From a virus (taxonomy: Duplodnaviria; Heunggongvirae; Uroviricota; Caudoviricetes), in the IMG/VR virus record IMGVR_UViG_649989948_000008, positions 1 to 39,032 of that record: a DNA stretch of 39,032 nt. One strand, written 5' to 3'. Both the position numbers and the translations under genes were made by a program. This document shows positions 3,408 to 36,809 of the stretch, in pieces; the stretch's first letter is position 1, and each line of letters starts with the position of its first letter. Below the pieces are notes generated by a model, which saw nothing but the letters and a program-made list of their open reading frames with translations, was not told the origin of the DNA and did not search any database.

Positions 3408-4043
3408 TCAGTGGGCTTTTTTACGCGCTGCGTTTATGCTTATGACGCCAGCTTTTGGACGTGGGTCAACAAGGTTAAGCTCTTCTTCGCTGTGGTATTC
3501 GAGGTCGAACTCACGTTTTACATGTCTGATGTAGATTGCGGTGAGCAGGCTATCTTTGGTCAGAAAGTGTCCGTAGGATTTGCGGATCACTTCTTCTACC
3601 TTCTCGATTTTCTCACCACCCATACAGAGATGATTAAACCGGCTGTGTTTCCGCAACATTTCGTCTACTGGGCCTGAGTAAACCTTGTCTACTTTCCCAA
3701 AACGGATGATTTTCCCTGTGTCTGCGGATACGAGGCAAATCAGCTTGTCTGGTGATAAACGATCTCGCCACGTCACACCTGAACGGAGTGTGTTGAAGTA
3801 GGGAGCATCCAATCCGATGATCGGTTTACGAAATGCGAGTAATGGAACGTACCTGATGCAACTGTTTAAATGAAAATTCACACCAGCCTTATCAAGTTTA
3901 ATTCTGGTTTCGTAGATCGGGCACTTCGCCGCTATACCGCAGATGTCACAAAGCAACTTCTGCTTATTCAGGTTGGAATTTGATTCGATAGTGTAGGAGC
4001 CGTCTTCAAGACGACGAACCCAGCGCGTGCGTTTTAGATCCAT
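3408..4043 (-). CDS. hypothetical Cys-containing protein next to the replication origin
   Basis: 211-aa ORF with ATG start; Cys cluster CDICGIAAKC; no family recognised by eye. Confidence 0.4.
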   Translation of the reverse strand: MDLKRTRWVRRLEDGSYTIESNSNLNKQKLLCDICGIAAKCPIYETRIKLDKAGVNFHLNSCIRYVPLLAFRKPIIGLDAPYFNTLRSGVTWRDRLSPDKLICLVSADTGKIIRFGKVDKVYSGPVDEMLRKHSRFNHLCMGGEKIEKVEEVIRKSYGHFLTKDSLLTAIYIRHVKREFDLEYHSEEELNLVDPRPKAGVISINAARKKAH

Positions 4044-4121
4044 ATGTCATTTTTCTGTGATTGTTAGCCGAGGCAACGATAACCCACCAGGTGCGCCGAA
4101 GGTAGTAAATGCCTGTTTTAA

Positions 4122-4138
4122 TTATTCACATATCCACA
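4122..4138 (+). promoter_or_regulatory. tandem DnaA boxes (TTATTCACA and ATATCCACA)
   Basis: First 9-mer matches the TTATNCACA consensus exactly, the second with one mismatch; located just upstream of the GATC cluster and iterons. Confidence 0.55.
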
Positions 4139-4143
4139 GGATA

Positions 4144-4202
4144 GATCCTAATAAAGAGATCCATAGATAGATCCTTATATAGATCAAATAAGATCCCCGA
4201 TC
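4144..4202 (+). promoter_or_regulatory. cluster of six GATC (Dam) sites in short AGATCC-type repeats; origin-like
   Basis: GATC at 4144, 4158, 4170, 4182, 4192 and 4199 within 59 bp; same arrangement as the P1 oriR methylation-dependent repeats. Confidence 0.55.
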
Positions 4203-4242
4203 GCTGTAAGCCGCGCCACGACTGGTCTGAAGTCATGTTCAT

Positions 4243-4344
4243 GTATGCTGTCAGCGGTAATTGATAGTCTGTCAGCGGTTCACCGTATGCTGCCAACTGT
4301 TTTTGGTATTCTGTCAGCGGCAAATCAAGTATGCTGTCAGCGGT
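4243..4344 (+). repeat. upstream iteron array (about 5 copies of TATGCTGTCAGCGGT-like repeats), incC/origin-like
   Basis: Copies at 4243-4258, 4265-4279, 4284-4300 (degenerate), 4305-4321 and 4328-4344, immediately 5' of repA. Confidence 0.7.
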
Positions 4345-4364
4345 TGAATGACAAAGGTGTCCAC

Positions 4365-5459
4365 ATGTCCACAAAAAATAAAAAAGGTAAAAATAACAAA
4401 GAAGTAGAAGATAACATCGACAACTTTGAAGAAGGTTCCCTTGAATTGTACACAGGGGAACTTGTCCCTAATAGCAACAATACAGTCCAACCAATTGCGT
4501 TGATGCGACTGGGGTTGTTCGTCCCCACGCTTAAGGGAACAAAATACAGTAAACGTAACAAGCCAAATGAGATCGATGCTTCAAAGGAGCTTGTCCAGCT
4601 CGAAGTAGCCCGTTCTGAAGGCTATTCCGATATCAAGATAACCGGTCCTCGTCTCGACATGGATCATGATTTCAAAACGTGGGTGGGCGTTGTGCGTTCG
4701 CTGGCAGAATACGGCGAACCTAACGGTCGTGTCGAGTTAAGCATCACGAAATTTGCTAAGTTTTGTGGCTATCCATCGTCACAGATCCGCAAAACACTCC
4801 GCGACCGGCTTACAAACAGTCTTTTGAAGATCATGCGTACAACTCTGTCTTTCCAGAGAACGTATGAAGAAAAGAACGTCGACGGCTCTAACAAGATCTC
4901 GCTTCTGATGGTGCACCTCATCAATAGCGTGGACTACAACGAGCAGAAAGATACGGTGGTGTTCTATGCAGAACCGAAGCTGGCCGAACTATATCGCTTT
5001 GACCATAAGGTTCTTTTGCAGTTAAAGGTTATCAATAAGCTACCACGCAAAGAAACAGCACAGGCTCTGTACACCTTCATCGAAAGTCTTCCAACCAAGC
5101 CTGCGCCGGTATCGCTTGCTCGATTGCGTGCGCGACTCAATTTGAGTAGCAGAAATGTCAGCTCGCAGAATCAGACTATACGTAACGGCTTAAAAGCTCT
5201 CCAAGATTTGGGCTATCTCGAATACAGCGAGATTAAGCGTGGGCGGTCGATCTATATCCAGATTCACAGCCGCAATCCAAAACTCAAAGTCGCACCGCCA
5301 AAACCTGAAGACATCGAACCCAAAAAACCAGATGAGAAAGCTGGGGAAATTGATGCCAAACAGAACATTATCAACAAGATAACCGAACTTTCGCAGAATT
5401 TGACGCCTGAAAATATCAAGATGATTGAGATCCTTTCCAATAGTCTCAAACTGCTTTGA
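4365..5459 (+). CDS. repA: iteron-binding replication initiator RepA (P1/RepFIB-like)
   Basis: 364-aa ORF flanked on both sides by iteron arrays; start chosen at the ATG at 4365 because the upstream in-frame part of the track ORF runs through the iterons. Family assignment rests on architecture and recollection. Confidence 0.65.
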   Translation: MSTKNKKGKNNKEVEDNIDNFEEGSLELYTGELVPNSNNTVQPIALMRLGLFVPTLKGTKYSKRNKPNEIDASKELVQLEVARSEGYSDIKITGPRLDMDHDFKTWVGVVRSLAEYGEPNGRVELSITKFAKFCGYPSSQIRKTLRDRLTNSLLKIMRTTLSFQRTYEEKNVDGSNKISLLMVHLINSVDYNEQKDTVVFYAEPKLAELYRFDHKVLLQLKVINKLPRKETAQALYTFIESLPTKPAPVSLARLRARLNLSSRNVSSQNQTIRNGLKALQDLGYLEYSEIKRGRSIYIQIHSRNPKLKVAPPKPEDIEPKKPDEKAGEIDAKQNIINKITELSQNLTPENIKMIEILSNSLKLL

Positions 5460-5576
5460 TATGCTGTCAGCGGTGAAATGTATGCTATCAGCGGCTATTT
5501 TTCTGAAAAGTATGCTGTGAACGGTTAAAGATATGCTACCAGCGGTATAGTGAGATGAACGTATGCTGTGAGCGGT
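5460..5576 (+). repeat. downstream iteron block 1 (5 copies), incA-like
   Basis: TATGCT(G/A)(T/C)(C/G)A(G/A)CGG(T/C) copies at 5460, 5481, 5511, 5533 and 5561. Confidence 0.7.
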
Positions 5577-5736
5577 AAATCATCTATCACCACTCAATGC
5601 TCTGTCATACCTCCCCAGTGGTTACTAACCTCGAAGAGTGCATTCCATATAGGTTTGCGCTCACTAACATTCTATTGCTATTGCGCTGATTGCTTGTAGT
5701 GAAAGGCATTTATTGCCTGCTACTCCCTGATAGAAC

Positions 5737-5991
5737 GTATGCTGTCAGCGGTGTTTTATTGAGGAATTTTTGTTTGGATATGCTATCAGCGGTAATTAAT
5801 GGTATATGTCAGACATTCGTATGCTGCCAGCGGTAATTTTGTTCTGGTTATACCCATACCGGGACACATTATTCATGCAATTTCTTAAGTATGCTGTCAG
5901 CGGTAAAAAATCGAGTAAAGTATGCTGTGAGCGGTGAGATAGACTCTCGATATGCTATCAGCGGTAGTTGATTGTGTATGCTGTCAGCGGT
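5737..5991 (+). repeat. downstream iteron block 2 (7 copies), incA-like
   Basis: Copies starting at 5737, 5779, 5819, 5889, 5920, 5951 and 5976; separated from block 1 by a 160-bp spacer. Confidence 0.7.
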
Positions 5992-6008
5992 GACGACTAT
6001 GAAATATG

Positions 6009-6030
6009 ACTGCGGAACGTGCCGCAGTCA
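6009..6030 (-). terminator. hairpin GACTGCGG-n6-CCGCAGTC just 3' of the 70-aa gene (weak U-tract)
   Basis: 8-bp perfect stem; the following T-run on the minus strand is poor. Confidence 0.3.
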
Positions 6031-6038
6031 GTTTGCAT

Positions 6039-6251
6039 TTAGTGTATTTTCTTTAACAGACCCCAAAGTGTTCCGGCTTTTGTAGTCAGTTTTCCTGTTT
6101 CTGGATCGTACATACGCCATTCACGCCGCTGGTGGACGATATACCCATCTTCACGTTCCAGACGCTCAAGAATGCCAGGCTGCTTGAAACCCTTAGCACG
6201 CCAGTAGCCGCTTGTTTTCTCGATTTCCAGACCTGCCAGTGTTAATGCCAT
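6039..6251 (-). CDS. hypothetical protein (70 aa)
   Basis: ATG start sharing one nucleotide with the stop of the upstream gene (TAATG). Confidence 0.4.
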   Translation of the reverse strand: MALTLAGLEIEKTSGYWRAKGFKQPGILERLEREDGYIVHQRREWRMYDPETGKLTTKAGTLWGLLKKIH

Positions 6252-6586
6252 TACCCAACCTCCTTGCAGTCATCGAAAAGGTAGCTTTGCTGAGAAGCGT
6301 GAACGCCATAGAAGCCCTTGTATTTGTTGTATACGAAGTGGTCTTCTCCGACGCCGGTTAATTTGCCATTACGATTTGTGAGATATGGGGATGACAACAC
6401 TCGATCGTCACGCACAACATAGAACTGGTCGCCGCTGTCTACGACCATCGCTCCATATGGTGCTTTTATGACGTCGGTAAGAGTGCCATTCTTAACGTCG
6501 GCTACAGACATTTCACACTGATAAACAGTGGTGTCGGCCACAACGATCGAAGAAAGAAACAACAGCGCGAATGGGATGGTCTTCAT
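6251..6586 (-). CDS. hypothetical secreted protein with N-terminal signal peptide
   Basis: MKTIPFALLFLSSIVVA signal-like N-terminus; RBS GAGGTGG upstream of the ATG. Confidence 0.5.
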   Translation of the reverse strand: MKTIPFALLFLSSIVVADTTVYQCEMSVADVKNGTLTDVIKAPYGAMVVDSGDQFYVVRDDRVLSSPYLTNRNGKLTGVGEDHFVYNKYKGFYGVHASQQSYLFDDCKEVG

Positions 6587-8775: not shown

Positions 8776-11115
8776 TTACTCTTCTACTGACTCGGTGGGG
8801 TTGTCTTTTGCTCTTCGGTCGTCGATTGCCTGCAAAGCCGCAATGATTTCAGCCAGTGGCTTCTCCCGATACATCTCGACGATCTGCGATTTGGTGTATT
8901 TCTTGTCACCAATTTCAACTCGCCCGCTGGCGTTCTTTGGCAGGTATCCTTCTTCCAGCATGTACTCGACGAGCGATTCGATAACGTCGAGGCCACGAGT
9001 AGGATCGAAGTAGAATTTCCAGGTGCATTTGCCATACGGTGGTGCAACTTTGTTTTTGATGCATTCTGCGCCTACGTCCTGGCCGATCTTCTCTTTACCA
9101 TCCTTCATCACCGATGCACCAAGACGGATACGTACAGAAGCGTAGAACTTCGGTGAATCTCCACCTGGCGACGTAGTAGGGTCGCCAAACATTACACCGA
9201 TTTTTGTGCGAACCTGATTCAAGAAGATGATGCAGGCGTTGTATTTGCGTGCCCACAAAGCCAGAGTAGGGAAGTTCGCACTCGTCGCACGAGCCAGTGC
9301 CGTATTGTCGTTCATGTTTAGCTGATCTTTGTCTTTGGCTGTGCCTTCAGCCATCTTTTCGAACTTCTCGGCTTTGGAGTTCGGAACCATAGACGCAAGA
9401 GAGTCAGCCACGATACAGATAGGTGCTGATTCGGGGATAAGCTCTTCATCACGAACCAATTTAAGTATTGTGCCGATCAACTCTACAGAGTCTTCGAAGG
9501 TATCTGGCTGCTTGTATACCCACTGACCGTCATCCTCATCTGCGTTCAGGCCATTGGCTACAGCCAGGCCAACGTCAAAACTGTTTTCATGATCGAGGAA
9601 TACCGCCAGACCATCTTGTTTTTGAGCGGAGATCATCGCTGCTGTTGCAAGGAATGTGTTGTGGCTGATAATCCCGTTAGACCAGAAAGAGTGTGTTTCC
9701 GGCATCGCTACGTCGAACGTTGGTGCTTCACCTTCCTCAATAGCCACGACTTCGTCGTAGAACAAGTTAGAGCCAATTACCGCTGCCAGTTGTGCAAACA
9801 GATGCTCGTTAAAACGATTCTTTCTGCCAATGAAGGAGACATAGATTTCTCGCAGTTTGTCTATTCCGACACGATCGCCGCGGCCAATAACGTGGTCTAC
9901 CAGAGCGTAGTCTTCACGGGTGGTCTTGGTGAGCGACTCGTAGAGTGATTTCACTAAGCCGCTGATGTGCGGAACATAGCCTGAGTAAGTGCGGTCAAAA
10001 CCAATGTCCCGTTTGGTTGCCACTGATAAACGTGCCGGAGATTCGAAACCAATCGTTGACAGAAAAAGGTCGTAATTAGAGCCACTGAATGACAGCCGGT
10101 AATATGTATTTTCATAACCCGCGACGTGTTTTTCAGAGATAGTTGACGTAATCCCCAGATTCAGGAGCATGAGGCGAATTTGCTGTAGCAGCAGCCCACT
10201 CGCGCTCACAACCTCAATGCAGCGACCATCATTGACGTGGCATTCCAGCTCAAAGTAGCCGCGAAGGAATGCAATTTGAGCCTCGCTATTGGCGCGACGC
10301 ACACTCAACGGAACCTGCTTGCCAGCAGCTTTCTCATACTCCAGACCATATTCTTTAAAAAGCAGCGAACGCACCTCTTTGCTAAACAGCACATGGTCTT
10401 CCGAGCCGTTATGTTTTCTCGTAACTGGCATCTTGTCTGATACCAGCGAAATGAGGCGGTAGTACTCATCCTTGATGAAAGGATCTGTGTTAGAAAAATT
10501 CACTGAATTTTCAGAGGCCACGTATCCGTCAGCAATTAAATAGCCCATCAGTTTTGCGATATTGGCATCCAGGTGCTGATCGCCGAATTGATGTGTGCCA
10601 ACCATTGAAGGAATCGTGTCGCCTACACTGATTTTTTCAGCATGTCGCCAGACGACATTACCTAAGTCGTCAACCACACGGATTGGGTGACGGAACGTAG
10701 CCTCGATATAACCGCCTGATGCCAGCTTAATACGCTTGAATTTGCGACGGTTGTTCCATGTCAGGTGTGAGGTCTTCTCTATCACGCCATTTTCATTGAT
10801 GAGTCCAACGTTATGCTCTACATCGCGAGTAGTGCATGTCGCTTTGTACCCTTCAATCTCAAACAACTCTTTCACTGTTACCATTCCACGCTCCGTCAGC
10901 AGCATGGTGTCTGCGGTAACACATTTCCCCGCGCTTGGTGGCCCGAATACTTCTACGATACGACCACATGGGAAACCGCCATCGTAACGACCGGAAATCG
11001 CTTTGTTTAACGGAGGAAAGCCTGTGTCAATCCAATGAGTTACTTTCTGAATTTCGTCGTTGCTACCGATTTTCTTTTTCAGAGCAAGTGCCAGTGCGGA
11101 TTTTCCTTTTGCCAT
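8776..11115 (-). CDS. recA: RecA-family recombinase interrupted by an intein (779-aa precursor, ~357-aa predicted mature protein)
   Basis: Exteins resemble RecA: GRIVEVFGPPSAGK|..|TFLA (Walker A), VFLDHENSFD, VMFGDPTTSPGGDSPKFYASVRIRLG; ATG with AGGAG RBS. Confidence 0.8.
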   Translation of the reverse strand: MAKGKSALALALKKKIGSNDEIQKVTHWIDTGFPPLNKAISGRYDGGFPCGRIVEVFGPPSAGKCVTADTMLLTERGMVTVKELFEIEGYKATCTTRDVEHNVGLINENGVIEKTSHLTWNNRRKFKRIKLASGGYIEATFRHPIRVVDDLGNVVWRHAEKISVGDTIPSMVGTHQFGDQHLDANIAKLMGYLIADGYVASENSVNFSNTDPFIKDEYYRLISLVSDKMPVTRKHNGSEDHVLFSKEVRSLLFKEYGLEYEKAAGKQVPLSVRRANSEAQIAFLRGYFELECHVNDGRCIEVVSASGLLLQQIRLMLLNLGITSTISEKHVAGYENTYYRLSFSGSNYDLFLSTIGFESPARLSVATKRDIGFDRTYSGYVPHISGLVKSLYESLTKTTREDYALVDHVIGRGDRVGIDKLREIYVSFIGRKNRFNEHLFAQLAAVIGSNLFYDEVVAIEEGEAPTFDVAMPETHSFWSNGIISHNTFLATAAMISAQKQDGLAVFLDHENSFDVGLAVANGLNADEDDGQWVYKQPDTFEDSVELIGTILKLVRDEELIPESAPICIVADSLASMVPNSKAEKFEKMAEGTAKDKDQLNMNDNTALARATSANFPTLALWARKYNACIIFLNQVRTKIGVMFGDPTTSPGGDSPKFYASVRIRLGASVMKDGKEKIGQDVGAECIKNKVAPPYGKCTWKFYFDPTRGLDVIESLVEYMLEEGYLPKNASGRVEIGDKKYTKSQIVEMYREKPLAEIIAALQAIDDRRAKDNPTESVEE
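9658..10923 (-). mobile_element. intein with LAGLIDADG homing-endonuclease domain (422 aa) inserted in the RecA P-loop
   Basis: Starts with Cys (CVTADTMLL), TxxH block (ATFRH), LAGLIDADG blocks (LMGYLIADGYV, FLRGYFELECHV), ends ...ISHN followed by Thr; junction codons checked by hand. Confidence 0.8.
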
Positions 11116-14091: not shown

Positions 14092-15261
14092 TCACGACTT
14101 AATAGTTTCTGCTACGTCGGCTAATATCGCTTCTAGTCGTTCTCCCTCTTCAGGTCTGAAGTAAAGAATGTTGGGGTTAAACCCGTAAAAGACAGTAACG
14201 TCAAGGTCTGGAAGATACTCCTTCCTGCCGACCAAATCGGATGGCTTGTTTTTGTTGTTAAACAATGCCGTTGCCCGGCTACCACACGTCAGCACATAGG
14301 TCGGGCGCACCAGATTGATCTCTTCACGCATAAAGTCGGTGAACTGGCCGATCTCGTCTTTGGTGTAGTCCTTTTCTTTGTCTTTCACCTTTTTGCAAAC
14401 GCCTGTGACATAGAGATCGCCCATGCGCAAATCCCCAGCCGTCAACAGCTTGGCCTTAAAATCGTCGTATCCGTTCTCCATAAAGTAACCGGTTCGAGCA
14501 TCATTGCCGTTCGCATTGTCCAGAATGATCATGATTTTCGGCTTAATACCAATGCTGGGGCGGATTAGTTCATCACCTAAGCCCATTTCAGCCGCCATCC
14601 GCGTCATGAGTACGTTAATCTCAGCCGAACGTTTGGGGTTCATCTCAAACGGACGTGACGCTTTAACTGCGTCTATGACAAGGTTTCCCATCAATTCAGC
14701 CTGGTCGCGTAGGCGCTCTGGATCAGTTGCTGGCAGACTACCTGGCTCGATGGATGCAAACGCCCCTACTTTTTGCAGCGATTCGCGCACTCGACTATTA
14801 CAGGCACGTTTCTCGACAGCTTCTTCGAATTGCGCCAGTGACTCGAATTTGCCGCCAACTTTTTCTCGCGCTCTCATGATGGCTTGGCAGCCATTCTCAG
14901 AACACCCTTTCACAGCAGAGAAGGGCGCATACAGCACCTGGCTGCCATCTTCAAGCGTGCGGATCTCGATTCGGTTAGATGACACGTTAACGTCTGGTGG
15001 CAATACGCGAATACCATAGGTCAGCGCATCTTTAACCAGCCCCTGGTGTTTATCTTCGCCAAGAATAGTGAGAGCAGCAGCGAAGAACTCCGCGGGATAA
15101 TGAGTTTTCAACCACATAGATTGATAACTGATTAAGGAGTAAGCAACAGAGTGTGATTTGTTGAAGGCATACGCGCCGGATTTCTCAAACATATTCCAGA
15201 TTTCTTCGGCTCGTTCGTGCGTCAGGCCATTGCTCTCTTCGACAACACCGGTAATTTTCAT
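14092..15261 (-). CDS. dnaE: DNA polymerase III alpha-like (DnaE), C-terminal fragment of a split gene
   Basis: Begins within the conserved region AYAFNKSHSVAYSLISYQSMWLKTHYPAEFFAA; its ATG overlaps the HNH gene stop (ATGA). Confidence 0.75.
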   Translation of the reverse strand: MKITGVVEESNGLTHERAEEIWNMFEKSGAYAFNKSHSVAYSLISYQSMWLKTHYPAEFFAAALTILGEDKHQGLVKDALTYGIRVLPPDVNVSSNRIEIRTLEDGSQVLYAPFSAVKGCSENGCQAIMRAREKVGGKFESLAQFEEAVEKRACNSRVRESLQKVGAFASIEPGSLPATDPERLRDQAELMGNLVIDAVKASRPFEMNPKRSAEINVLMTRMAAEMGLGDELIRPSIGIKPKIMIILDNANGNDARTGYFMENGYDDFKAKLLTAGDLRMGDLYVTGVCKKVKDKEKDYTKDEIGQFTDFMREEINLVRPTYVLTCGSRATALFNNKNKPSDLVGRKEYLPDLDVTVFYGFNPNILYFRPEEGERLEAILADVAETIKS

Positions 15262-15992
15262 GCAGTCACCTCATCAATCTTCACGAACTCATACCCATTG
15301 GAGGCCAGCCAGTTCCGTTGGCGCTCCCAGCTCCATATCTCTTCACGCATTTCACTATGCAGGCGAATGTGGGCGTCTTCTGGAAGTGCTACAAGATTCC
15401 CAGGGGCGTTATCTATCGTATCGCGGTTAATATGGTGGACATGTTCATCGTCACGTAGCTCCCGACCGAGACGTTCTTTCGCTATCAATCGATGAACGTA
15501 TTCGTATTGCGAAACGCCATTGTTACCAACCAGCTGCATCATGTAGCCGTTGGTTTTTACGATGATGCCACCTTTGTAGTTGTTCGCTTCTTCTCCGATC
15601 TTTCCGCGTTTGGCAGCCGCCAGCTTTTCCTTCGTCTCCGCGCGGATTGTTCTGCCGGTTAGCTTTTTCGAAACGGTGGCCACTCGCTCATCGATATCAG
15701 CACGCAGACCGGCATTCCACGAGGTTTTCCCATACATAGGGTTGCCAGTGCCAGTCCGGGCTTCGGAGAGACGCTTCATACGTTCGTCATTATTTTTGTT
15801 TTTGCCACGATTCCAGGCTGGGGTAGCGGAGATCCGCGCGCTTCCGCGCCTGATCCCCCATTTGGCTAATAAGCGGTCAATATTTGCCTTGCTGCAACCA
15901 GCTTCGGCGGCAATGTCTTCTTTTCTCATCAGGTCAACCATGTAACGCTGACGTAACCATTCTTCTGTGATTTTGTACTTCGTACTCGGCAT
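15258..15992 (-). CDS. HNH homing endonuclease inserted between the two DnaE fragments
   Basis: HNH motif EHVHHINRDTIDNAPGNLVALPEDAHIRLH, NUMOD-like repeats and an N-terminal HTH-like segment; preceded by its own AAACAAATTGTTTTCTTA motif. Confidence 0.75.
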   Translation of the reverse strand: MPSTKYKITEEWLRQRYMVDLMRKEDIAAEAGCSKANIDRLLAKWGIRRGSARISATPAWNRGKNKNNDERMKRLSEARTGTGNPMYGKTSWNAGLRADIDERVATVSKKLTGRTIRAETKEKLAAAKRGKIGEEANNYKGGIIVKTNGYMMQLVGNNGVSQYEYVHRLIAKERLGRELRDDEHVHHINRDTIDNAPGNLVALPEDAHIRLHSEMREEIWSWERQRNWLASNGYEFVKIDEVTA

Positions 15993-28423: not shown

Positions 28424-28586
28424 CCTTAATCTCCTTCAGGGTGTTGGTTATTTCTACAATGCGATAAATACGACCGCGTCTTTCTATAACACCGCTTTTA
28501 ATGTAGTCATTGATGCAACTGGACATCACCACAATACCTATGAAAAAACCAACTGCTAAAAATGCAATCATCCAGCCGAGCATCAT
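28407..28586 (-). CDS. small membrane protein (59 aa, below track cutoff)
   Basis: Hand-translated MMLGWMIAFLAVGFFIGIVVMSSC...; its ATG overlaps the ligase stop (ATGA). Confidence 0.35.
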   Translation of the reverse strand: MMLGWMIAFLAVGFFIGIVVMSSCINDYIKSGVIERRGRIYRIVEITNTLKEIKDDRIK

Positions 28587-29905
28587 TCTTTATCTCCGAT
28601 TCGATCTTCTGTATCGCGTAAGCAACGCGGCCATTTCAGTCGTGGGTGGCGTAAGCTGCCGTCCGGTGTTTTCTCGTGACAATGAACCTCGACAATACGA
28701 CCACGGTACTTCTCTTTGTTGTTCCAGATCTCATCCAGATATTTATGCTTAATGCCGCTCGCACGAACGATGACGCCGTTTTCAAGACGAATAACAATTT
28801 TTCCAAGTGTGTTGGCAAAACCAGAGTCCGGGTCGCCCGGCTCAAAGTCGATAATTTCACCATCTTCTGAATCTTCGTCTTTTAACTTCCACCAGCTGCG
28901 GGTACGTTTAAACTCGTAAACAGAGTTCGGATCTTTGCCCATCTCCCCTTCTTCGTTATCGTCCAGGCGTTTCATGAAGCGTTCGATGAAGTCTTCGTGG
29001 CTATGGATGATATAGAACGGATGCAGGTGAATGTCTTGTGTGTAGCCTTCACTGCGATCGTTTTTGAACAACGCCACCAGCATAGCCAGGCGCTCTTTCA
29101 GCTTCATACCTGTCTTTGCATACTCTTTGGATTTAGCCTGTGCTCGCCATTCCGGTAGGAAGAAGTCGAAAACATGATAAATAGCGCCAATTGCCTGCAC
29201 GTTCTTTTTGCGCAATGCAGATACGGACTGGTTAAATGAACCGGCAGTTCCTTCACCATCGAAGAAGATGTGTTTGTGGCCTGAAAGTTTGCCTAATTCG
29301 AGCATTGCTGGCTTTAGGTGATCGAGAGACGTGATTGGATTACCAGTACGAGAAAGGAAGTTAACCTCTTCCTCGTCAACAATAACCTCGCAAATTACTC
29401 GCAAACCATCGAGCTTAAGACTGCCAATCATCGGCCATTTTGCTTTAGGATTTGGCTTGAAGGGGTATTTGTCGCCTTTTTCTTTATACGGTGACGCCAG
29501 CTGCACCTCGAATTTCGGAATGGGATTTTCAAAAACCTTGTTGCATAGGCTAATCCCAACACCTGCTTTCGGGTCTTTTAAGAGGAAACGACGGAACACG
29601 TCCTGCCCATCGGCGCACATTGACGCCACGATAGACTCAACAGCTGCTATTGCTGCGTTCCCCGTTAGCTCGCGAGAGGCCAGCTTATTCAGTACATCAA
29701 TGGCTTTTTCGTCACTTGGGATGGACTCACTAAGCGGCTCTGCCACTTTGTATTTCTTTACCCCAAAACGGATGAAAGGGTTGAGCATCAATGAAACCAT
29801 GCTTTGCTCGAAGTCATCCATGTTGGCCAATGCCTCTTTTTTTGCATTGGTTCCCATAGCTTTCATTTCGTCCAGCTTATGCTTAAGTGCGATCAACTTT
29901 TTCAT
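28583..29905 (-). CDS. ATP-dependent DNA ligase
   Basis: Nucleotidyltransferase motif I KLDGLR, motif III FFDGEGT, motif IV EGEMGK, motif V WWKLK, then an OB-fold-sized C-terminus. Confidence 0.7.
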   Translation of the reverse strand: MKKLIALKHKLDEMKAMGTNAKKEALANMDDFEQSMVSLMLNPFIRFGVKKYKVAEPLSESIPSDEKAIDVLNKLASRELTGNAAIAAVESIVASMCADGQDVFRRFLLKDPKAGVGISLCNKVFENPIPKFEVQLASPYKEKGDKYPFKPNPKAKWPMIGSLKLDGLRVICEVIVDEEEVNFLSRTGNPITSLDHLKPAMLELGKLSGHKHIFFDGEGTAGSFNQSVSALRKKNVQAIGAIYHVFDFFLPEWRAQAKSKEYAKTGMKLKERLAMLVALFKNDRSEGYTQDIHLHPFYIIHSHEDFIERFMKRLDDNEEGEMGKDPNSVYEFKRTRSWWKLKDEDSEDGEIIDFEPGDPDSGFANTLGKIVIRLENGVIVRASGIKHKYLDEIWNNKEKYRGRIVEVHCHEKTPDGSLRHPRLKWPRCLRDTEDRIGDKE

Positions 29906-31291: not shown

Positions 31292-32473
31292 TTATGATAG
31301 AGCCTTAATGCCCAAAACCTTGCTTTGCAACTCCAACTGTTTGGTATACGGTTTTGCCCGATAATAGGCTTTGATAATTTGTTCTGGCGTTGCACCGCCC
31401 GGGTCGAGTCCTTCCTCACCCAAACACGCAACTTTGACATTAAGACCGATACTGGTCAGTCGCCTGGCTGCGGCCATCGTGTTGCGTATAGCTTGCTTTT
31501 CACTATCCCACATCATGATCACATTACGTAATCCACGCGCCTTGAGCGTCAGGAACGCGCCTAACTGATCTTCTGCATCCTGAGTGGTGTTACCAGATAG
31601 ATGCATCCCGAACGTTCCTATTGGTTCCACGTAATCACGTAATGTTTCTTCGTCAAAAATAGCTCGTTTAACCCCCATAACATCGAACGCCCCCTCACAG
31701 ACAACTACAGTCTGTTTGCCGACTGCATTATGGCCGTTGTAGAGAAACTTACCTGAAGCTGGAAGTTGCATAGGAAAGAGGTAGCGGCGTTCTGCTGTAC
31801 CGGTAATGTCTCGTCCCTGAAATGTCTTCATTACCCCATCCAGATCGTAAACCGGTATCAGTATTCGCATATCGAATATCTGTCCTTTAACCTGATCTGT
31901 ATACGGATCTACATAGGCGTGCTTGCCTTCGACGCAGTATCGTAGGTCAAAATACTTTGCCATTTCAGGCGATATGTTTCGTTCAACCAGATAGTCTGGA
32001 AGACGGCCATCTATAGGAAGCTCGTAATGACGAGGGAGTGCAACTGGCTCCTCTAACTCGACTGTGCTTGCAAGCACTAGCTCTTCTTTCTTTGGTGCCC
32101 ACCCCTGGGAAAGAAGGGCGTTCTGCACATATTCCTCGAACTGTCGTCGTGATTTGCCGCTGTAGTGCTTGAGGAAGACCAGCTTATTGAACTGAATCTC
32201 TTCGGGATGATCACCAGCGAAGCATTTACCGACGCCACTGGTCAGATTGAAATATACCTTCCAGTTGGAGCTGCCGCATACCGGACACTCCTTGATATTC
32301 ACTTCACGACCGCGAGTACTCACGCCTCCACGTCGATAAACGATACCTTCAGTATCCAACCATTGTTCAAAATCTAATTCGGTAATTAGCTCTTTCAGCT
32401 CGCTCACGATAATTCCACTTTTAACAGGCAATATTGTGACCAACCTAAATGTTGATATAACATAAAGGCTCAT
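31292..32473 (-). CDS. DNA primase (zinc-ribbon plus TOPRIM)
   Basis: Zinc ribbon CPVCGSSNWKVYFNLTSGVGKCFAGDH and TOPRIM acidic motif VVVCEGAFDVMGV. Start placed at the ATG at 32473, which has the conserved start context (track ORF begins at 32545). Confidence 0.65.
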   Translation of the reverse strand: MSLYVISTFRLVTILPVKSGIIVSELKELITELDFEQWLDTEGIVYRRGGVSTRGREVNIKECPVCGSSNWKVYFNLTSGVGKCFAGDHPEEIQFNKLVFLKHYSGKSRRQFEEYVQNALLSQGWAPKKEELVLASTVELEEPVALPRHYELPIDGRLPDYLVERNISPEMAKYFDLRYCVEGKHAYVDPYTDQVKGQIFDMRILIPVYDLDGVMKTFQGRDITGTAERRYLFPMQLPASGKFLYNGHNAVGKQTVVVCEGAFDVMGVKRAIFDEETLRDYVEPIGTFGMHLSGNTTQDAEDQLGAFLTLKARGLRNVIMMWDSEKQAIRNTMAAARRLTSIGLNVKVACLGEEGLDPGGATPEQIIKAYYRAKPYTKQLELQSKVLGIKALS

Positions 32474-32554
32474 GTGTTTTTCTTTTGTGGTTTGGCAAAA
32501 GAAAAGTTGTTTCACCAATGAATCAAGCGTGGAGGTGTTCTCCACGCTTATTTT

Positions 32555-33895
32555 TTAGGTAACGTCTAAGATTCGCTCAATGAAGCGCATTTGTTCGAGG
32601 TTTTGTTTAACGCGAATGCTGATCCCTCCCTGCTGGTTACGTGAACCGGCAAAGTAGAGACGAGCCTCTCCTTTCGCTTCTTCTTCTTCGGTTTTGTTGA
32701 TCGTTATTACCAGGTCAGCAATACGTACTTTTTCGATGTTGTCGGCAGCGTGCATCATTGTGGCAACTTCTGACGCGCCACCTTCACGGTTTGTCTGCGA
32801 TGCCGTGATCCCAGCAACGTTATGCTTGTCATAAAGAGCACGTAAATCGGTGTAGATACTACGAATGTTGGCGCGATCATCACGAAGGTCATAACTGGCA
32901 CGCATCAAATCTGCGTAGTCGACAACAACCATGTCAGGTACCATGCCGTTGGCTTTCATGCTGTTAAGCATACGGTCCAGATCTGCCGGTGACATACTTC
33001 CTGACGGACGCTCAACCACCCACAAACTACCAATCCCCTTCGTGGCTCCCAACTCTGCCAACTTACGATGAACCTCATCGCGCCGTTCCACCAGCTTGGA
33101 CATTTCTGTCTCCGACAATCTTGCATCAAAACGGTCGGATAAAATGGTGGTGTGAACCTCCAGCGAGAGATACAGAACATTGTAGCCAGCAAGCGTTGCG
33201 TTTATGGAAAACTCACCCATTGCGGTCGATTTACCGGATTTAGCGAACCCCATGAAGAGCACCATTTCGCGCTTTGCCCAGCCTTTTTGGTACAGCAACC
33301 TATCGAGAAGAGGGAGTCCAGTTGTAATACTGTTTGGTACATACTCCTCTGAAGCCTCATATTCACGCGCTTTCAATCGCTCACTTGCGGAGGTGTAGTA
33401 GTCATAGATTCCGGTCGCTTCGTTCGATCCAATCTGCTGAACCCTGGCCATGATTGCCATCGCCCCCTGAAAGTCGCCTTTCTCTTTCAGTTCAGCAGCC
33501 TTAATCAGAGCATCATCAAACGCTACACTTTTTGCGAAGGTTGATACCTGGTCAACCATGTACGAGGTATCGGACAATTTTTCTGCAAGAATGCGCTTAA
33601 ACGCAGCAACAACATCGGCGAATAGTTCCTCACGGATAGTCTTATCGCGTTTCGCACGCTTAAGCATATCCAGAATTGCAGATGAAGAGGGCGCGCTCTT
33701 GTACATACGGTAATAGCCCGAAACCATATTAACCAATATGGCATTGGCCGCATTGGCAAACTGGCTAGGCACAACCAGATCTCCCGCACGAGTAAGAAAC
33801 TCGTGATCACGACAAAAATATGCCGTCAGTCTGTTCTGGAAATCTTCATCAAACTCTTCGGACAGCCCGCGTCCTGTATGGCAAAGTTCGGTCAT
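32555..33895 (-). CDS. dnaB: DnaB-family replicative helicase
   Basis: Walker A GFAKSGKST, Walker B VVVDYADLM, and ITASQTNREG resembling the DnaB SQLNR motif. Confidence 0.75.
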   Translation of the reverse strand: MTELCHTGRGLSEEFDEDFQNRLTAYFCRDHEFLTRAGDLVVPSQFANAANAILVNMVSGYYRMYKSAPSSSAILDMLKRAKRDKTIREELFADVVAAFKRILAEKLSDTSYMVDQVSTFAKSVAFDDALIKAAELKEKGDFQGAMAIMARVQQIGSNEATGIYDYYTSASERLKAREYEASEEYVPNSITTGLPLLDRLLYQKGWAKREMVLFMGFAKSGKSTAMGEFSINATLAGYNVLYLSLEVHTTILSDRFDARLSETEMSKLVERRDEVHRKLAELGATKGIGSLWVVERPSGSMSPADLDRMLNSMKANGMVPDMVVVDYADLMRASYDLRDDRANIRSIYTDLRALYDKHNVAGITASQTNREGGASEVATMMHAADNIEKVRIADLVITINKTEEEEAKGEARLYFAGSRNQQGGISIRVKQNLEQMRFIERILDVT

Positions 33896-35783: not shown

Positions 35784-36141
35784 AACCTTTCTTCATCAAC
35801 TCTCGTTTGATTTCATCGGTACGCATCGTGACATCGGCAGCGGTGATCGCCTCATTCAATTTCACGATGTCCTCGATTTCCTGCGGTGACTTCTCTGCCA
35901 GATGGAAAATGGCTGCTCGAATCACGTCAGAACGAGTGAACTTCTCGAAGCGAGGGATGAACTTCATCATCTCCAGCAGTTCGAAGTATTCGTCCTCCAG
36001 TGACATTGTGCGGCTTTTAATTTTCTCTTTGCCACGAGTCGGGCGTCCCTGTGGTCTGACTGGTTGGCGCAAAGGAGTTGTGTTCTTAGCCGGTGCATCA
36101 GGCTCTTTGCGCTTTGCTAGGTCACCCATTTTCATGGACAT
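35782..36141 (-). CDS. small partition-associated DNA-binding protein (ParB/ParG-like)
   Basis: 119-aa basic protein immediately downstream of parA and translationally coupled (TAATG); identity inferred from position and size only. Confidence 0.45.
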   Translation of the reverse strand: MSMKMGDLAKRKEPDAPAKNTTPLRQPVRPQGRPTRGKEKIKSRTMSLEDEYFELLEMMKFIPRFEKFTRSDVIRAAIFHLAEKSPQEIEDIVKLNEAITAADVTMRTDEIKRELMKKG

Positions 36142-36809
36142 TATTCTTCTTCCTCCAGACTCAACAGATAATCTACAAATTCTTCAAACTCGGCTTCAGC
36201 CTTTTTGTCGCGCTCGCTACCGGTCATTTCGAAGATAGAACGACCAGACTCTTCCGCATCATCGTAGACGTTGCGGTTATATAGATTGACTGGCGCAGAC
36301 TCGATGCCAAACGTCTCGACAATCTCTTTAGCCGCCAGAATGCGAGACACTTGTGATGGCAAAGCCGGGCACTGGTTCATGACCGCGCGGACCTTCACTT
36401 TATCGTTTACATTACGAACATTGTCGATAATAGGATCGATGTCACGCAGAGATTTCAAATCACGACGCTTAGGACGAAGCGGGATAATGATAACGTCGGC
36501 CATCAGCATCGCTTGTCGCTGAATTTCGGAGTCAAAGCCACCAGCATCTACCACTACAAACTCAGCTCTACCCTGAAGCGATTTTAGGTGCTTAATGATG
36601 TCATCCTGAACGTATGCAAAAGGAATCAGCTCAAGGTCTTCGTTCTGTCGACGGTCTTCACACCAGCTTGTTGTCGTGCGCTGAATATCTATATCAGTGA
36701 TATAAACCTTCTTCTTCTTTTTGACTTTCAGGCAAACGGCAATTTGCTGGGCAACAGTGGATTTGCCAGGCCCGCCCTTTGTGCCGCCAACCACAAAGAT
36801 CTTGGTCAT
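36141..36809 (-). CDS. parA: ParA/Soj-family partition ATPase (small, type Ib-like)
   Basis: Deviant Walker A GGTKGGPGKST at the N-terminus; 222 aa; preceded by the AAACAAcTTGTTTTCTTA motif. Confidence 0.75.
   Translation of the reverse strand: MTKIFVVGGTKGGPGKSTVAQQIAVCLKVKKKKKVYITDIDIQRTTTSWCEDRRQNEDLELIPFAYVQDDIIKHLKSLQGRAEFVVVDAGGFDSEIQRQAMLMADVIIIPLRPKRRDLKSLRDIDPIIDNVRNVNDKVKVRAVMNQCPALPSQVSRILAAKEIVETFGIESAPVNLYNRNVYDDAEESGRSIFEMTGSERDKKAEAEFEEFVDYLLSLEEEE

Follow-up and report, generated by a model that had tools for sequence, protein, structure and literature searches.

The plasmid replicon of the myovirus P1 is arranged in the order oriR-incC, repA and incA. Its five origin iterons (GATGTGTGCTGGAGGGAAA) are phased at 21, 21, 21 and 22 bp, its origin contains five GATC sites, and its RepA initiator is 286 aa long. 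The control iterons of incA, nine in number (a single block of three direct iterons followed by six inverted ones), adjoin the repA stop codon and have parA-parB-parS as their neighbor. The same RepA family includes RepFIB of F and P307 and of the P1-like phages RCS47 and SJ46, in which iterons flank repA on both sides. Other relatives are the replicons of the SSU5 group and those of the Klebsiella pKPHS1 type (IncpKPHS1), and in the published description of the latter just four downstream iterons and a RepA without a known domain were noted (PMC6735626).

Here, we compare with these systems a locus in the IMG/VR virus record IMGVR_UViG_649989948_000008, the whole analyzed stretch of which (39,032 nucleotides) is referred to as the window. 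Positions 4122–6030 very probably constitute the replicon by which an E. coli SSU5-like phage-plasmid is maintained as a low-copy plasmid, a replicon that belongs to the P1 RepA/RepFIB iteron family. Its carrier is a siphovirus of the SSU5-like kind, in contrast to the P1-like myoviruses. The replicon is ordinary in kind and was previously poorly annotated; no experiments on it were found in the accessible literature.

Origin core and the RepA initiator

The outer edge of the origin is formed by two overlapping DnaA boxes on the plus strand (4122–4138), TTATTCACA (4122–4130) and ATATCCACA (4130–4138), each one mismatch from TTATCCACA, which agrees with the tandem boxes proposed in the initial annotation. 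They represent two of the seven matches to TTATCCACA at no more than one mismatch on both strands of the 39 kb, and the annotated DnaA-binding site of P1 oriR aligns with them. The adjacent AT-rich stretch (4139–4202, plus strand; GC content 30–32%) contains GATC (Dam) sites at 4144, 4158, 4170, 4182, 4192 and 4199, mostly within (T)AGATCC heptamers. The initial count of six GATC in 59 bp is exact (4144–4202), as compared with five sites in P1, and this cluster is the only one in the window with at least four GATC per 62 bp, the mean density in the whole window being 4.07 per kb. GATC columns are common to the aligned origins of P1, SSU5, Klebsiella and Cronobacter, and the sites here match, in the alignment, the Dam sites annotated in P1. 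Presumably, this stretch is the region of both unwinding and sequestration by SeqA. Between it and the iterons sits a GC-rich box, GCCGCGCCACGACTGG (4210–4225, plus strand), which is nearly identical to GCCGCGCCACGTCTGG at the equivalent position in P1. The whole 130-bp origin core could be aligned column by column with the annotated P1 oriR over the DnaA boxes, the GATC heptamers, the AGATCCCCGATCG motif and the GC-rich box GCCGCGCCACGNCTGG.

Two DnaA-box-like 9-mers, GTGTCCACA and ATGTCCACA (4357–4373, plus strand; two mismatches each), lie at the inner end of the origin and overlap the repA start codon, and a box at −8 from the repA ATG is kept in relatives L089–L092. Similar motifs can be read between incC and repA in the P1 sequence, whose records annotate the outer DnaA site only. 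Sites matching the IHF or Fis consensus were absent from 4000–6100.

The repA gene (4365–5459, plus strand), preceded by the Shine–Dalgarno sequence AAAGG at 4351–4355, encodes a protein of 364 aa, which is extended at both the N- and the C-terminus compared with P1 RepA and has the predicted features of a WH1–WH2 iteron-binding initiator. Its disordered, Lys-rich residues 1–41 are followed by the WH1 (about 65–210) and WH2 (about 214–303) domains of an AlphaFold2 model (mean pLDDT 71.5), by a Pro/charged linker (310–327) and by a C-terminal helical hairpin (327–363). The Pfam Rep3_N family (PF01051) was matched with an E-value of 3.9e-9 and 37.5 bits (cutoff 22.4), while NCBIfam gave no match, and neither did a PDB sequence search at E up to 1. 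The best PDB matches of the model in Foldseek were RctB, RepE, pi and TrfA. Although the predicted tandem winged-helix fold is closest in the PDB to those of Vibrio cholerae chromosome 2 RctB, F RepE and R6K pi, the sequence identity of these proteins to RepA is only 12–14%, and their origins and control sites differ. The Pfam match, the model and its Foldseek matches support the assignment of RepA to the Rep_3/WH1–WH2 iteron initiators.

In a tblastn search, RepA was 43.5% identical to the product of P1/P7 repA over residues 32–309 (E 2e-64), and many columns of its alignment with P1 RepA are invariant. The identity is 47.9% to SSU5 RepA and 41.2% to RepFIB-annotated proteins, some database records annotate this repA gene as repFIB, and within the family, neither the RepFIB nor the SSU5 branch is closer to the replicon than the other. 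These comparisons show, at the level of sequence, that RepA is homologous to P1 RepA and the origin core to P1 oriR.

Iterons on both sides of repA

The iteron core TATGCTGTCAGCGGT has 17 matches at no more than three mismatches in 4244–5991, all 17 on the plus strand, and two strays elsewhere in the window. In 100 dinucleotide-preserving shuffles, the mean number of matches was 0.82 and the largest was 7, so that none reached 19 (0/100). Moreover, the 17 iterons had position-weight-matrix scores of 19–30, as compared with 15 for the next best site. The module was thus shown to comprise 17 co-oriented repeats, which are putative binding sites of the initiator. Their core shares the TrTGCTG half alone with the P1 iteron, and it is unlike that of every sampled relative outside its own clade.

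Upstream of repA, where about five iterons had been claimed, there are exactly five (4244–4344). These origin iterons, the equivalent of incC (4243–4346, plus strand), start at 4244, 4265, 4286, 4307 and 4330, and their spacing of 21, 21, 21 and 23 bp differs from the P1 phasing only in the last interval. Iterons 2–4 are degenerate copies. Downstream, block 1 of the control array (5459–5578, plus strand) runs from the repA stop codon onward, as incA does in P1, and consists of five direct iterons starting at 5460, 5481, 5511, 5532 and 5562. An iteron-free spacer of 161 bp (5577–5737) separates it from block 2 (5737–5993, plus strand), whose seven direct iterons start at 5738, 5779, 5820, 5890, 5921, 5951 and 5977, at spacings of 41, 41, 70, 31, 30 and 26 bp. 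The total of 12 downstream iterons (5460–5991, all direct, 5+7) bears out the twelve iterons in two blocks, with a spacer of about 160 bp, that had been counted initially. Array spacing is roughly 30–40 bp both here and in P1. The P1-type oriR-incC/repA/incA layout, which had also been proposed, is essentially correct and is backed by homology, namely by the identity of RepA, the alignment of the origin core, the phasing of the iterons and the position of the array. However, as the array differs from that of P1 in the number and orientation of iterons and in its bipartite form, it may not act exactly like incA.

In the spacer between the blocks, neither an ORF nor a significant promoter, an RNA family or an IHF site was found, and the alignment of seven relatives revealed no conserved element in it. 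Its length across the clade ranges between 69 and 161 bp, and its sequence is not conserved; terminator-like hairpins occur in it in only two of the seven aligned relatives. The replicon ends with a hairpin that resembles a bidirectional terminator, TGACTGCGG-AACGTG-CCGCAGTCA (6007–6030), and that stands between the replicon and convergent small genes. It was the single useful match of the promoter/terminator scan, the counts of which were not above those in shuffles. A search of 3800–6400 against Rfam (E up to 1) gave no RNA family.

In GenBank MZ779062 (Klebsiella phage pJN2-26), two of the repeats are labeled attR and attL, as if the repeats flanking repA were phage attachment or recombination sites. 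The labels coincide with iteron copies that we found at that locus. Rather than two, there are 13–17 copies with helical phasing, and next to the repeats is the DnaA/GATC core of an origin that is homologous to P1 oriR. Additionally, the elements are circular plasmids and never chromosomal. By copy number, phasing, origin core and plasmid state, the attachment-site annotation is effectively refuted, and its probability is negligible.

Another function that might be ascribed to block 2 is that of a partition centromere instead of a copy-control element. In contrast to P1, no par operon or parS adjoins the replicon, the place of parA-parB-parS next to the array being taken by the small convergent genes, and a ParA/MipZ-like ATPase is encoded about 30 kb away (36141–36809), which would leave room for such a role. 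However, as the repeats of block 2 match the origin iterons, RepA is their expected ligand, and three of them are dispensable in the phage PhiR41_1, in which exactly 87 bp (5890 to 5977) are missing and the array is reduced to nine iterons. This makes a centromere extremely unlikely.

Relatives and carrier elements

SSU5, pHCM2, pMT1 and pLF82 (Cyrano) share the neighborhood of the replicon, with SbcCD-like and ASCH-like genes upstream and small genes downstream. Their RepA likewise has a C-terminal tail, and their origin core is the same, but their iteron, AACCACTGTAGAGAGTA, is unlike TATGCTGTCAGCGGT, and iterons of both orientations occur in their downstream arrays. In SSU5 and Y. pestis pMT1, the origin core is duplicated, with two upstream iteron sets. 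The RepFIB members, most of which have a C-terminal tail, also differ in iteron specificity. In contrast, the Klebsiella pKPHS1-type replicons belong to the same clade (RepA 79–87% identical) and have in common with the locus studied here the iteron core, the five upstream iterons and the all-direct, two-block downstream array, although their arrays consist of 4+4 or 4+5 iterons with a spacer of 69–85 bp.

Replicons that agree with this one in both architecture and iteron were found in Salmonella (RepA 92% identity) and Klebsiella (79–85%). A relative whose RepA is 61% identical has another iteron, CTATTCTGTAGG, in the same layout of five upstream iterons and a two-block downstream array, indicating that repeat and protein co-vary. 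Both the layout and the way it co-varies with RepA were shown to be preserved among relatives. Judging by the arrays compared, the all-direct bipartite form is specific to the clade, as the arrays of P1 and of most relatives include iterons in both orientations.

Of 5,426 complete E. coli genomes, 120 (about 2%) carry the replicon, always on a plasmid and never on the chromosome, and the full 661-bp array is kept in 120 of 124 PLSDB matches. The match in NZ_CP023851.1 is 26 bp longer than the query. It is also carried by the inducible phage record PhiR41_1. The molecule studied here is a fusion of the replicon with an IncC plasmid, and so the replicon need not be the one in use. Its PlasmidFinder type is probably IncFIB(H89-PhagePlasmid), which is a typing label and not an incompatibility test; the type p0111 was rejected, as it denotes P1-like elements. 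Public annotations are erroneous or sparse: in them, repA was made to start inside an iteron, and iterons were named attL/attR.

As genes for a DnaB-like helicase, a primase and a ligase are part of the element itself, the region could double as a lytic (vegetative) origin, with the array tuning the switch between plasmid and lytic replication, and the extra C-terminal helical domain in the RepA model would be a candidate partner-binding part. However, a non-phage plasmid of Rosenbergiella bears the same replicon next to parAB, and thus the replicon is a self-contained plasmid module. In P1, too, the lytic replicon is separate. We therefore consider a lytic role of the region very unlikely.

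Proposed copy control and significance of the replicon

Established work on P1 and other iteron plasmids suggests how a plasmid-maintenance replicon of this kind would operate. RepA monomers, probably activated by DnaK/DnaJ/GrpE, would fill the five origin iterons, which are phased at two helical turns, and host DnaA on the flanking boxes would help to open the AT-rich region of GATC heptamers and to load DnaB. By homology with P1, firing would need full Dam methylation, after which SeqA would hold the hemimethylated origin. RepA bound to the origin iterons would also repress its own promoter located inside them. The 12 downstream iterons would be incA-like, binding RepA and, by handcuffing in cis or in trans, pairing with the origin iterons, and this pairing, with some titration, would keep the copy number low and cause incompatibility.

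With regard to autorepression, a relaxed scan gave two candidate repA promoters inside the iterons on the plus strand, neither of them strong: TTGATA-19-TATGCT (4261–4291) and TTGGTA-18-AAGTAT (4303–4332). The latter is, by the coordinates of the P1 record, the positional homologue of P1 PrepA. A stricter scan found none on the plus strand, and as neither scan yielded a convincing sigma-70 promoter within the origin iterons, the geometry of autorepression is putative.

Alternatively, the layout could be P1-like while the downstream array is for the most part a passive RepA-titrating sink and does not act by pairing with the origin. Twelve high-quality sites would compete well for RepA with five partly degenerate origin sites, and block 2, all direct and widely spaced, has no obvious pairing geometry. 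Nevertheless, the homologous protein and layout favor the P1 mechanism, and for P1 it was established that titration by itself does not suffice, as RepA is autoregulated. We consider a mainly passive array unlikely.

We regard as quite improbable another reading, in which the all-direct bipartite array and the two-helix C-terminal domain of RepA would be a clade-specific redesign of control and not neutral drift, with a copy-control geometry unlike that of P1. Looping in cis between the blocks might then buffer handcuffing, analogously to the competing sites in Vibrio ori2, or the RepA tail might link replication to the phage lytic switch or to the partition machinery. If this were true, gain or loss of iterons, as in the nine-iteron PhiR41_1 variant, could shift the copy number.

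Handcuffing-based control of the P1 type thus remains the preferred reading, in a replicon that has its own repeat sequence and, within the P1 replicon family, an unusual one-direction control array. The phage-plasmid lineage that the replicon maintains occurs in about 2% of complete E. coli genomes, in Shigella sonnei and in relatives from Salmonella and Klebsiella, and surveillance studies have noted the replicon as a typing label only. Resistance genes have been reported in members of the wider SSU5 group. A correct cis-map provides exact targets for incompatibility-based curing and for mini-replicon vectors, as well as for the reading of copy-number variants. While opening no new question, the replicon adds a natural all-direct, bipartite variant to the classic P1 paradigm of copy control.

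Origin core and iterons of the replicon

The initial annotation placed tandem DnaA boxes upstream of repA, and these were found as two overlapping 9-mers, TTATTCACA (4122) and ATATCCACA (4130), each with one mismatch to the DnaA box TTATCCACA; only 7 matches at that level occur on both strands of the 39-kb window. The six GATC sites within 59 bp could likewise be counted (4144, 4158, 4170, 4182, 4192, and 4199), as compared with 4.07 sites per kb overall, and the origin is the only stretch of the window with at least four GATC sites per 62 bp. The GC content of this stretch is 30–32%, versus about 45–50% in its flanks. A 130-bp stretch that starts at the DnaA boxes and reaches the first iteron can be aligned position by position with the annotated oriR of P1. 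The features that correspond are both DnaA boxes, the GATC heptamers, the motif AGATCCC(C/T)GATCG, and the GC-rich box GCCGCGCCACG(A/T)CTGG; with its sixth GATC site, the cluster has one more than P1. A further conserved DnaA box overlaps the repA ATG (4357–4373), and flanks the origin opposite the outer pair.

The 15-mer TATGCTGTCAGCGGT, with up to three mismatches, has 17 matches in 4244–5991, all on the + strand. In 100 dinucleotide-preserving shuffles the mean number of matches was 0.82, and none reached the window-wide total of 19 (the 17 and two stray ones). A position weight matrix gives the 17 iterons scores of 19–30, and no other site in the window scores above 15; conservation extends over about 16–17 nt, (G/A)TATGCTGTCAGCGGT(A). 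The expectation of about five iterons upstream of repA was met by exactly 5, spaced by 21, 21, 21, and 23 bp, which repeats the two-turn phasing of P1. The iteron specificity differs from that of P1. Downstream, the anticipated twelve iterons in two blocks around a spacer of about 160 bp are resolved into 5 in 5460–5576 and 7 in 5738–5991 (+ strand), with a gap of 161 bp. As with incA in P1, the stop codon of repA marks the beginning of the array. Scanning of the spacer between the blocks for RNA, ORF, and promoter- or terminator-type features found nothing; it contains a weak 5-bp hairpin (5705–5719) without a T-run.

The RepA initiator and the start of its gene

The ORF between the arrays (4365–5459, + strand) encodes a protein of 364 aa with the Pfam Rep3_N domain. 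In tblastn searches it was 43.5% identical to RepA of P1 and P7 over residues 32–309 (E 2e-64), 47.9% to RepA of SSU5 and Cyrano, 41% to proteins annotated as RepFIB in P1-like phages, and 85–87% to RepA of Klebsiella phage-plasmids. An AlphaFold2 model built from 46 homologues (mean pLDDT 71.5) contains two winged-helix domains, roughly residues 65–210 and 214–303, and in the PDB it most resembles RctB domains 2–3, RepE, a WH1 domain, pi, and TrfA. As modelled, RepA would have the fold of an iteron initiator. It is 78 residues longer than P1 RepA, from which it also differs by a disordered, Lys-rich N-terminus and by residues 310–364 (5292–5456), a Pro/charged linker followed by a confidently predicted two-helix C-terminal hairpin. 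Most RepFIB-like relatives have a short, helical C-terminal tail in some form, which P1 RepA lacks. Taken together, the RepA homology, the alignment of the oriR core, the iteron phasing, and the array at the repA stop bear out the proposed P1-type oriR-incC/repA/incA layout.

RefSeq/PGAP places the repA start at 4245, at an ATG inside iteron 1, giving a protein of 404 aa whose gene spans the whole set of five origin iterons. Translation from 4365, by contrast, is preceded by the Shine-Dalgarno sequence AAAGG and yields an N-terminus that agrees with the Klebsiella one, and many assemblies are rotated to begin there. The 404-aa call looks like a longest-ORF artefact. In Klebsiella phage pJN2-26 (MZ779062.1), the sequences labelled attR/attL at 2378–2397 and 3648–3667 are really iterons of a 13-copy family flanking repA. 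The cis-anatomy of the replicon appears to have been undescribed until now; for the sister Klebsiella type, the single paper that we found (PMC6735626) gives four iterons and no recognised domain.

The downstream array among relatives

We surveyed 89 loci encoding RepA relatives, 80 from one-genome-per-species contigs and the remaining ones from phage and plasmid collections, and called iterons de novo, locus by locus. Most of them have one or two DnaA boxes, 4–6 GATC sites clustered within 70 bp, about five phased iterons upstream, and a downstream array. Mixed orientation is nearly universal in these arrays, typically with a handful of direct copies ahead of many that are inverted; in P1, as read from the sequence, three direct iterons precede six inverted ones. 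The exception is the clade of the window, in which all downstream copies are direct and the array is in two blocks, so that the 12 control sites of the window are arranged unlike those of P1. With the gap measured between blocks from iteron start to iteron start, the window (E. coli, RepA 100%) has 5+7 iterons and a gap of 176 bp, the Salmonella relative (RepA 92%) 5+7 and 174 bp, Klebsiella (85%) 4+4 and 87 bp, K. oxytoca (79%) 4+5 and 85 bp, Rosenbergiella (78%) 2+2 and 74 bp, and the metagenomic relative L092 (61%) 3+3 and 105 bp. Neither the sequence nor the length of the spacer is conserved across the clade. A terminator-like spacer hairpin, GC-rich and with a T-run, is present in two relatives (L090, ~3735–3765; L092, ~3725–3760). 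The iteron of L092 is a different one, CTATTCTGTAGG, but the layout is unchanged; therefore, the repeat co-varies with RepA, as would be expected of a RepA binding site.

The control array is stable: a 661-bp array query was covered by at least 80% in 120 of 124 plasmid matches, and nearly all of the matches listed span exactly 661 bp. In NZ_CP023851.1 the match is 26 bp longer than the query. Phage PhiR41_1 (PV340561.1) has an exact 87-bp deletion, equivalent to 5890–5976, which runs from one to the other of two identical copies (5890 and 5977); it thus lacks three control iterons, leaving nine downstream instead of 12. This is a natural contraction of the array by iteron–iteron recombination.

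The origin core (DnaA box and GATC region) is duplicated in SSU5 (1780–1823 and 2155–2198) and in a Y. pestis pMT1-like locus. This SSU5/pMT1 branch has two upstream iteron sets about 300–375 bp apart, whereas the replicon of the window has just one.

Genomic setting, distribution, and expected copy control

The replicon is neighboured by SbcCD-like genes, an ASCH-like gene, and a row of small genes, beyond which lie SPFH-domain, RecA-like, and exonuclease genes; this is the SSU5 arrangement. The window starts inside ISEc23 (IS66 family; 1–205), which truncates the SbcC-like AAA ATPase gene to an ORF of 540 aa, versus 638 aa in relatives. The RecA-like gene (8776–11115, − strand) encodes 779 aa and is labelled a LAGLIDADG homing endonuclease in RefSeq; its counterpart in p09EL50 has only ~357 aa, which points to an inserted intein or homing endonuclease. 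Further along are an HNH endonuclease ORF (15258–15992) and four clustered tRNA genes for Ser-TGA, Thr-TGT, Tyr-GTA, and Asn-GTT (26443–26993, − strand). The intervals 22967–24070, 28583–29905, and 31292–33895 contain genes for a tyrosine recombinase, an ATP-dependent DNA ligase, a primase, and a DnaB-like helicase, likely a lytic replication module. Inspection of the neighbouring genes revealed no par operon adjoining the replicon, and a ParA/MipZ-like ATPase is encoded about 30 kb away (36141–36809). In contrast, the Rosenbergiella relative of the same clade (L091, 59–2238; RepA 78%) adjoins a divergent P1-type parA–parB. That locus is carried by a non-phage plasmid; the module is therefore exchanged between ordinary plasmids and phage-plasmids.

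About 120 PLSDB plasmids, ~105–115 kb in size, carry the 2.1-kb region at ≥95% identity. Their hosts are E. coli, Shigella sonnei, E. albertii, and E. fergusonii, and two of the plasmids are p09EL50, from O104:H4, and that of strain H89; phage records with the region are PhiR41_1 and CMS-2020a. Among complete E. coli genomes, 120 of 5,426 have the replicon, always on plasmids. NZ_CP146657.1, a 198-kb cointegrate of this phage-plasmid and an IncC conjugative plasmid, is 100% identical to the first 22 kb of the window (1–22000). The MOB-suite type is rep_cluster_488, and we infer that the PlasmidFinder type is IncFIB(H89-PhagePlasmid), a label in use in 25 papers; over the array, identity to the H89 plasmid record is 98.9%.

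The homology of the initiator and the origin core, and the repeat architecture with its conservation and co-variation, are established here. By analogy with P1 and other iteron plasmids, RepA monomers would fill the five origin iterons, and DnaA bound to the flanking boxes (the outer pair and the repA-ATG box) would aid opening of the GATC-heptamer region. Firing would need Dam methylation, after which SeqA would sequester the hemimethylated origin. RepA would repress its own promoter; a scan of the iterons for a repA promoter gave just two poor candidates, and the promoter is the weakest link of the mechanism. The downstream array would limit copy number by handcuffing, i.e., pairing with origins, and by titration, and would also set incompatibility. 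As a system the replicon is of a textbook kind, and it is already typed routinely; the control array is a modest, clade-specific variation on that known system.
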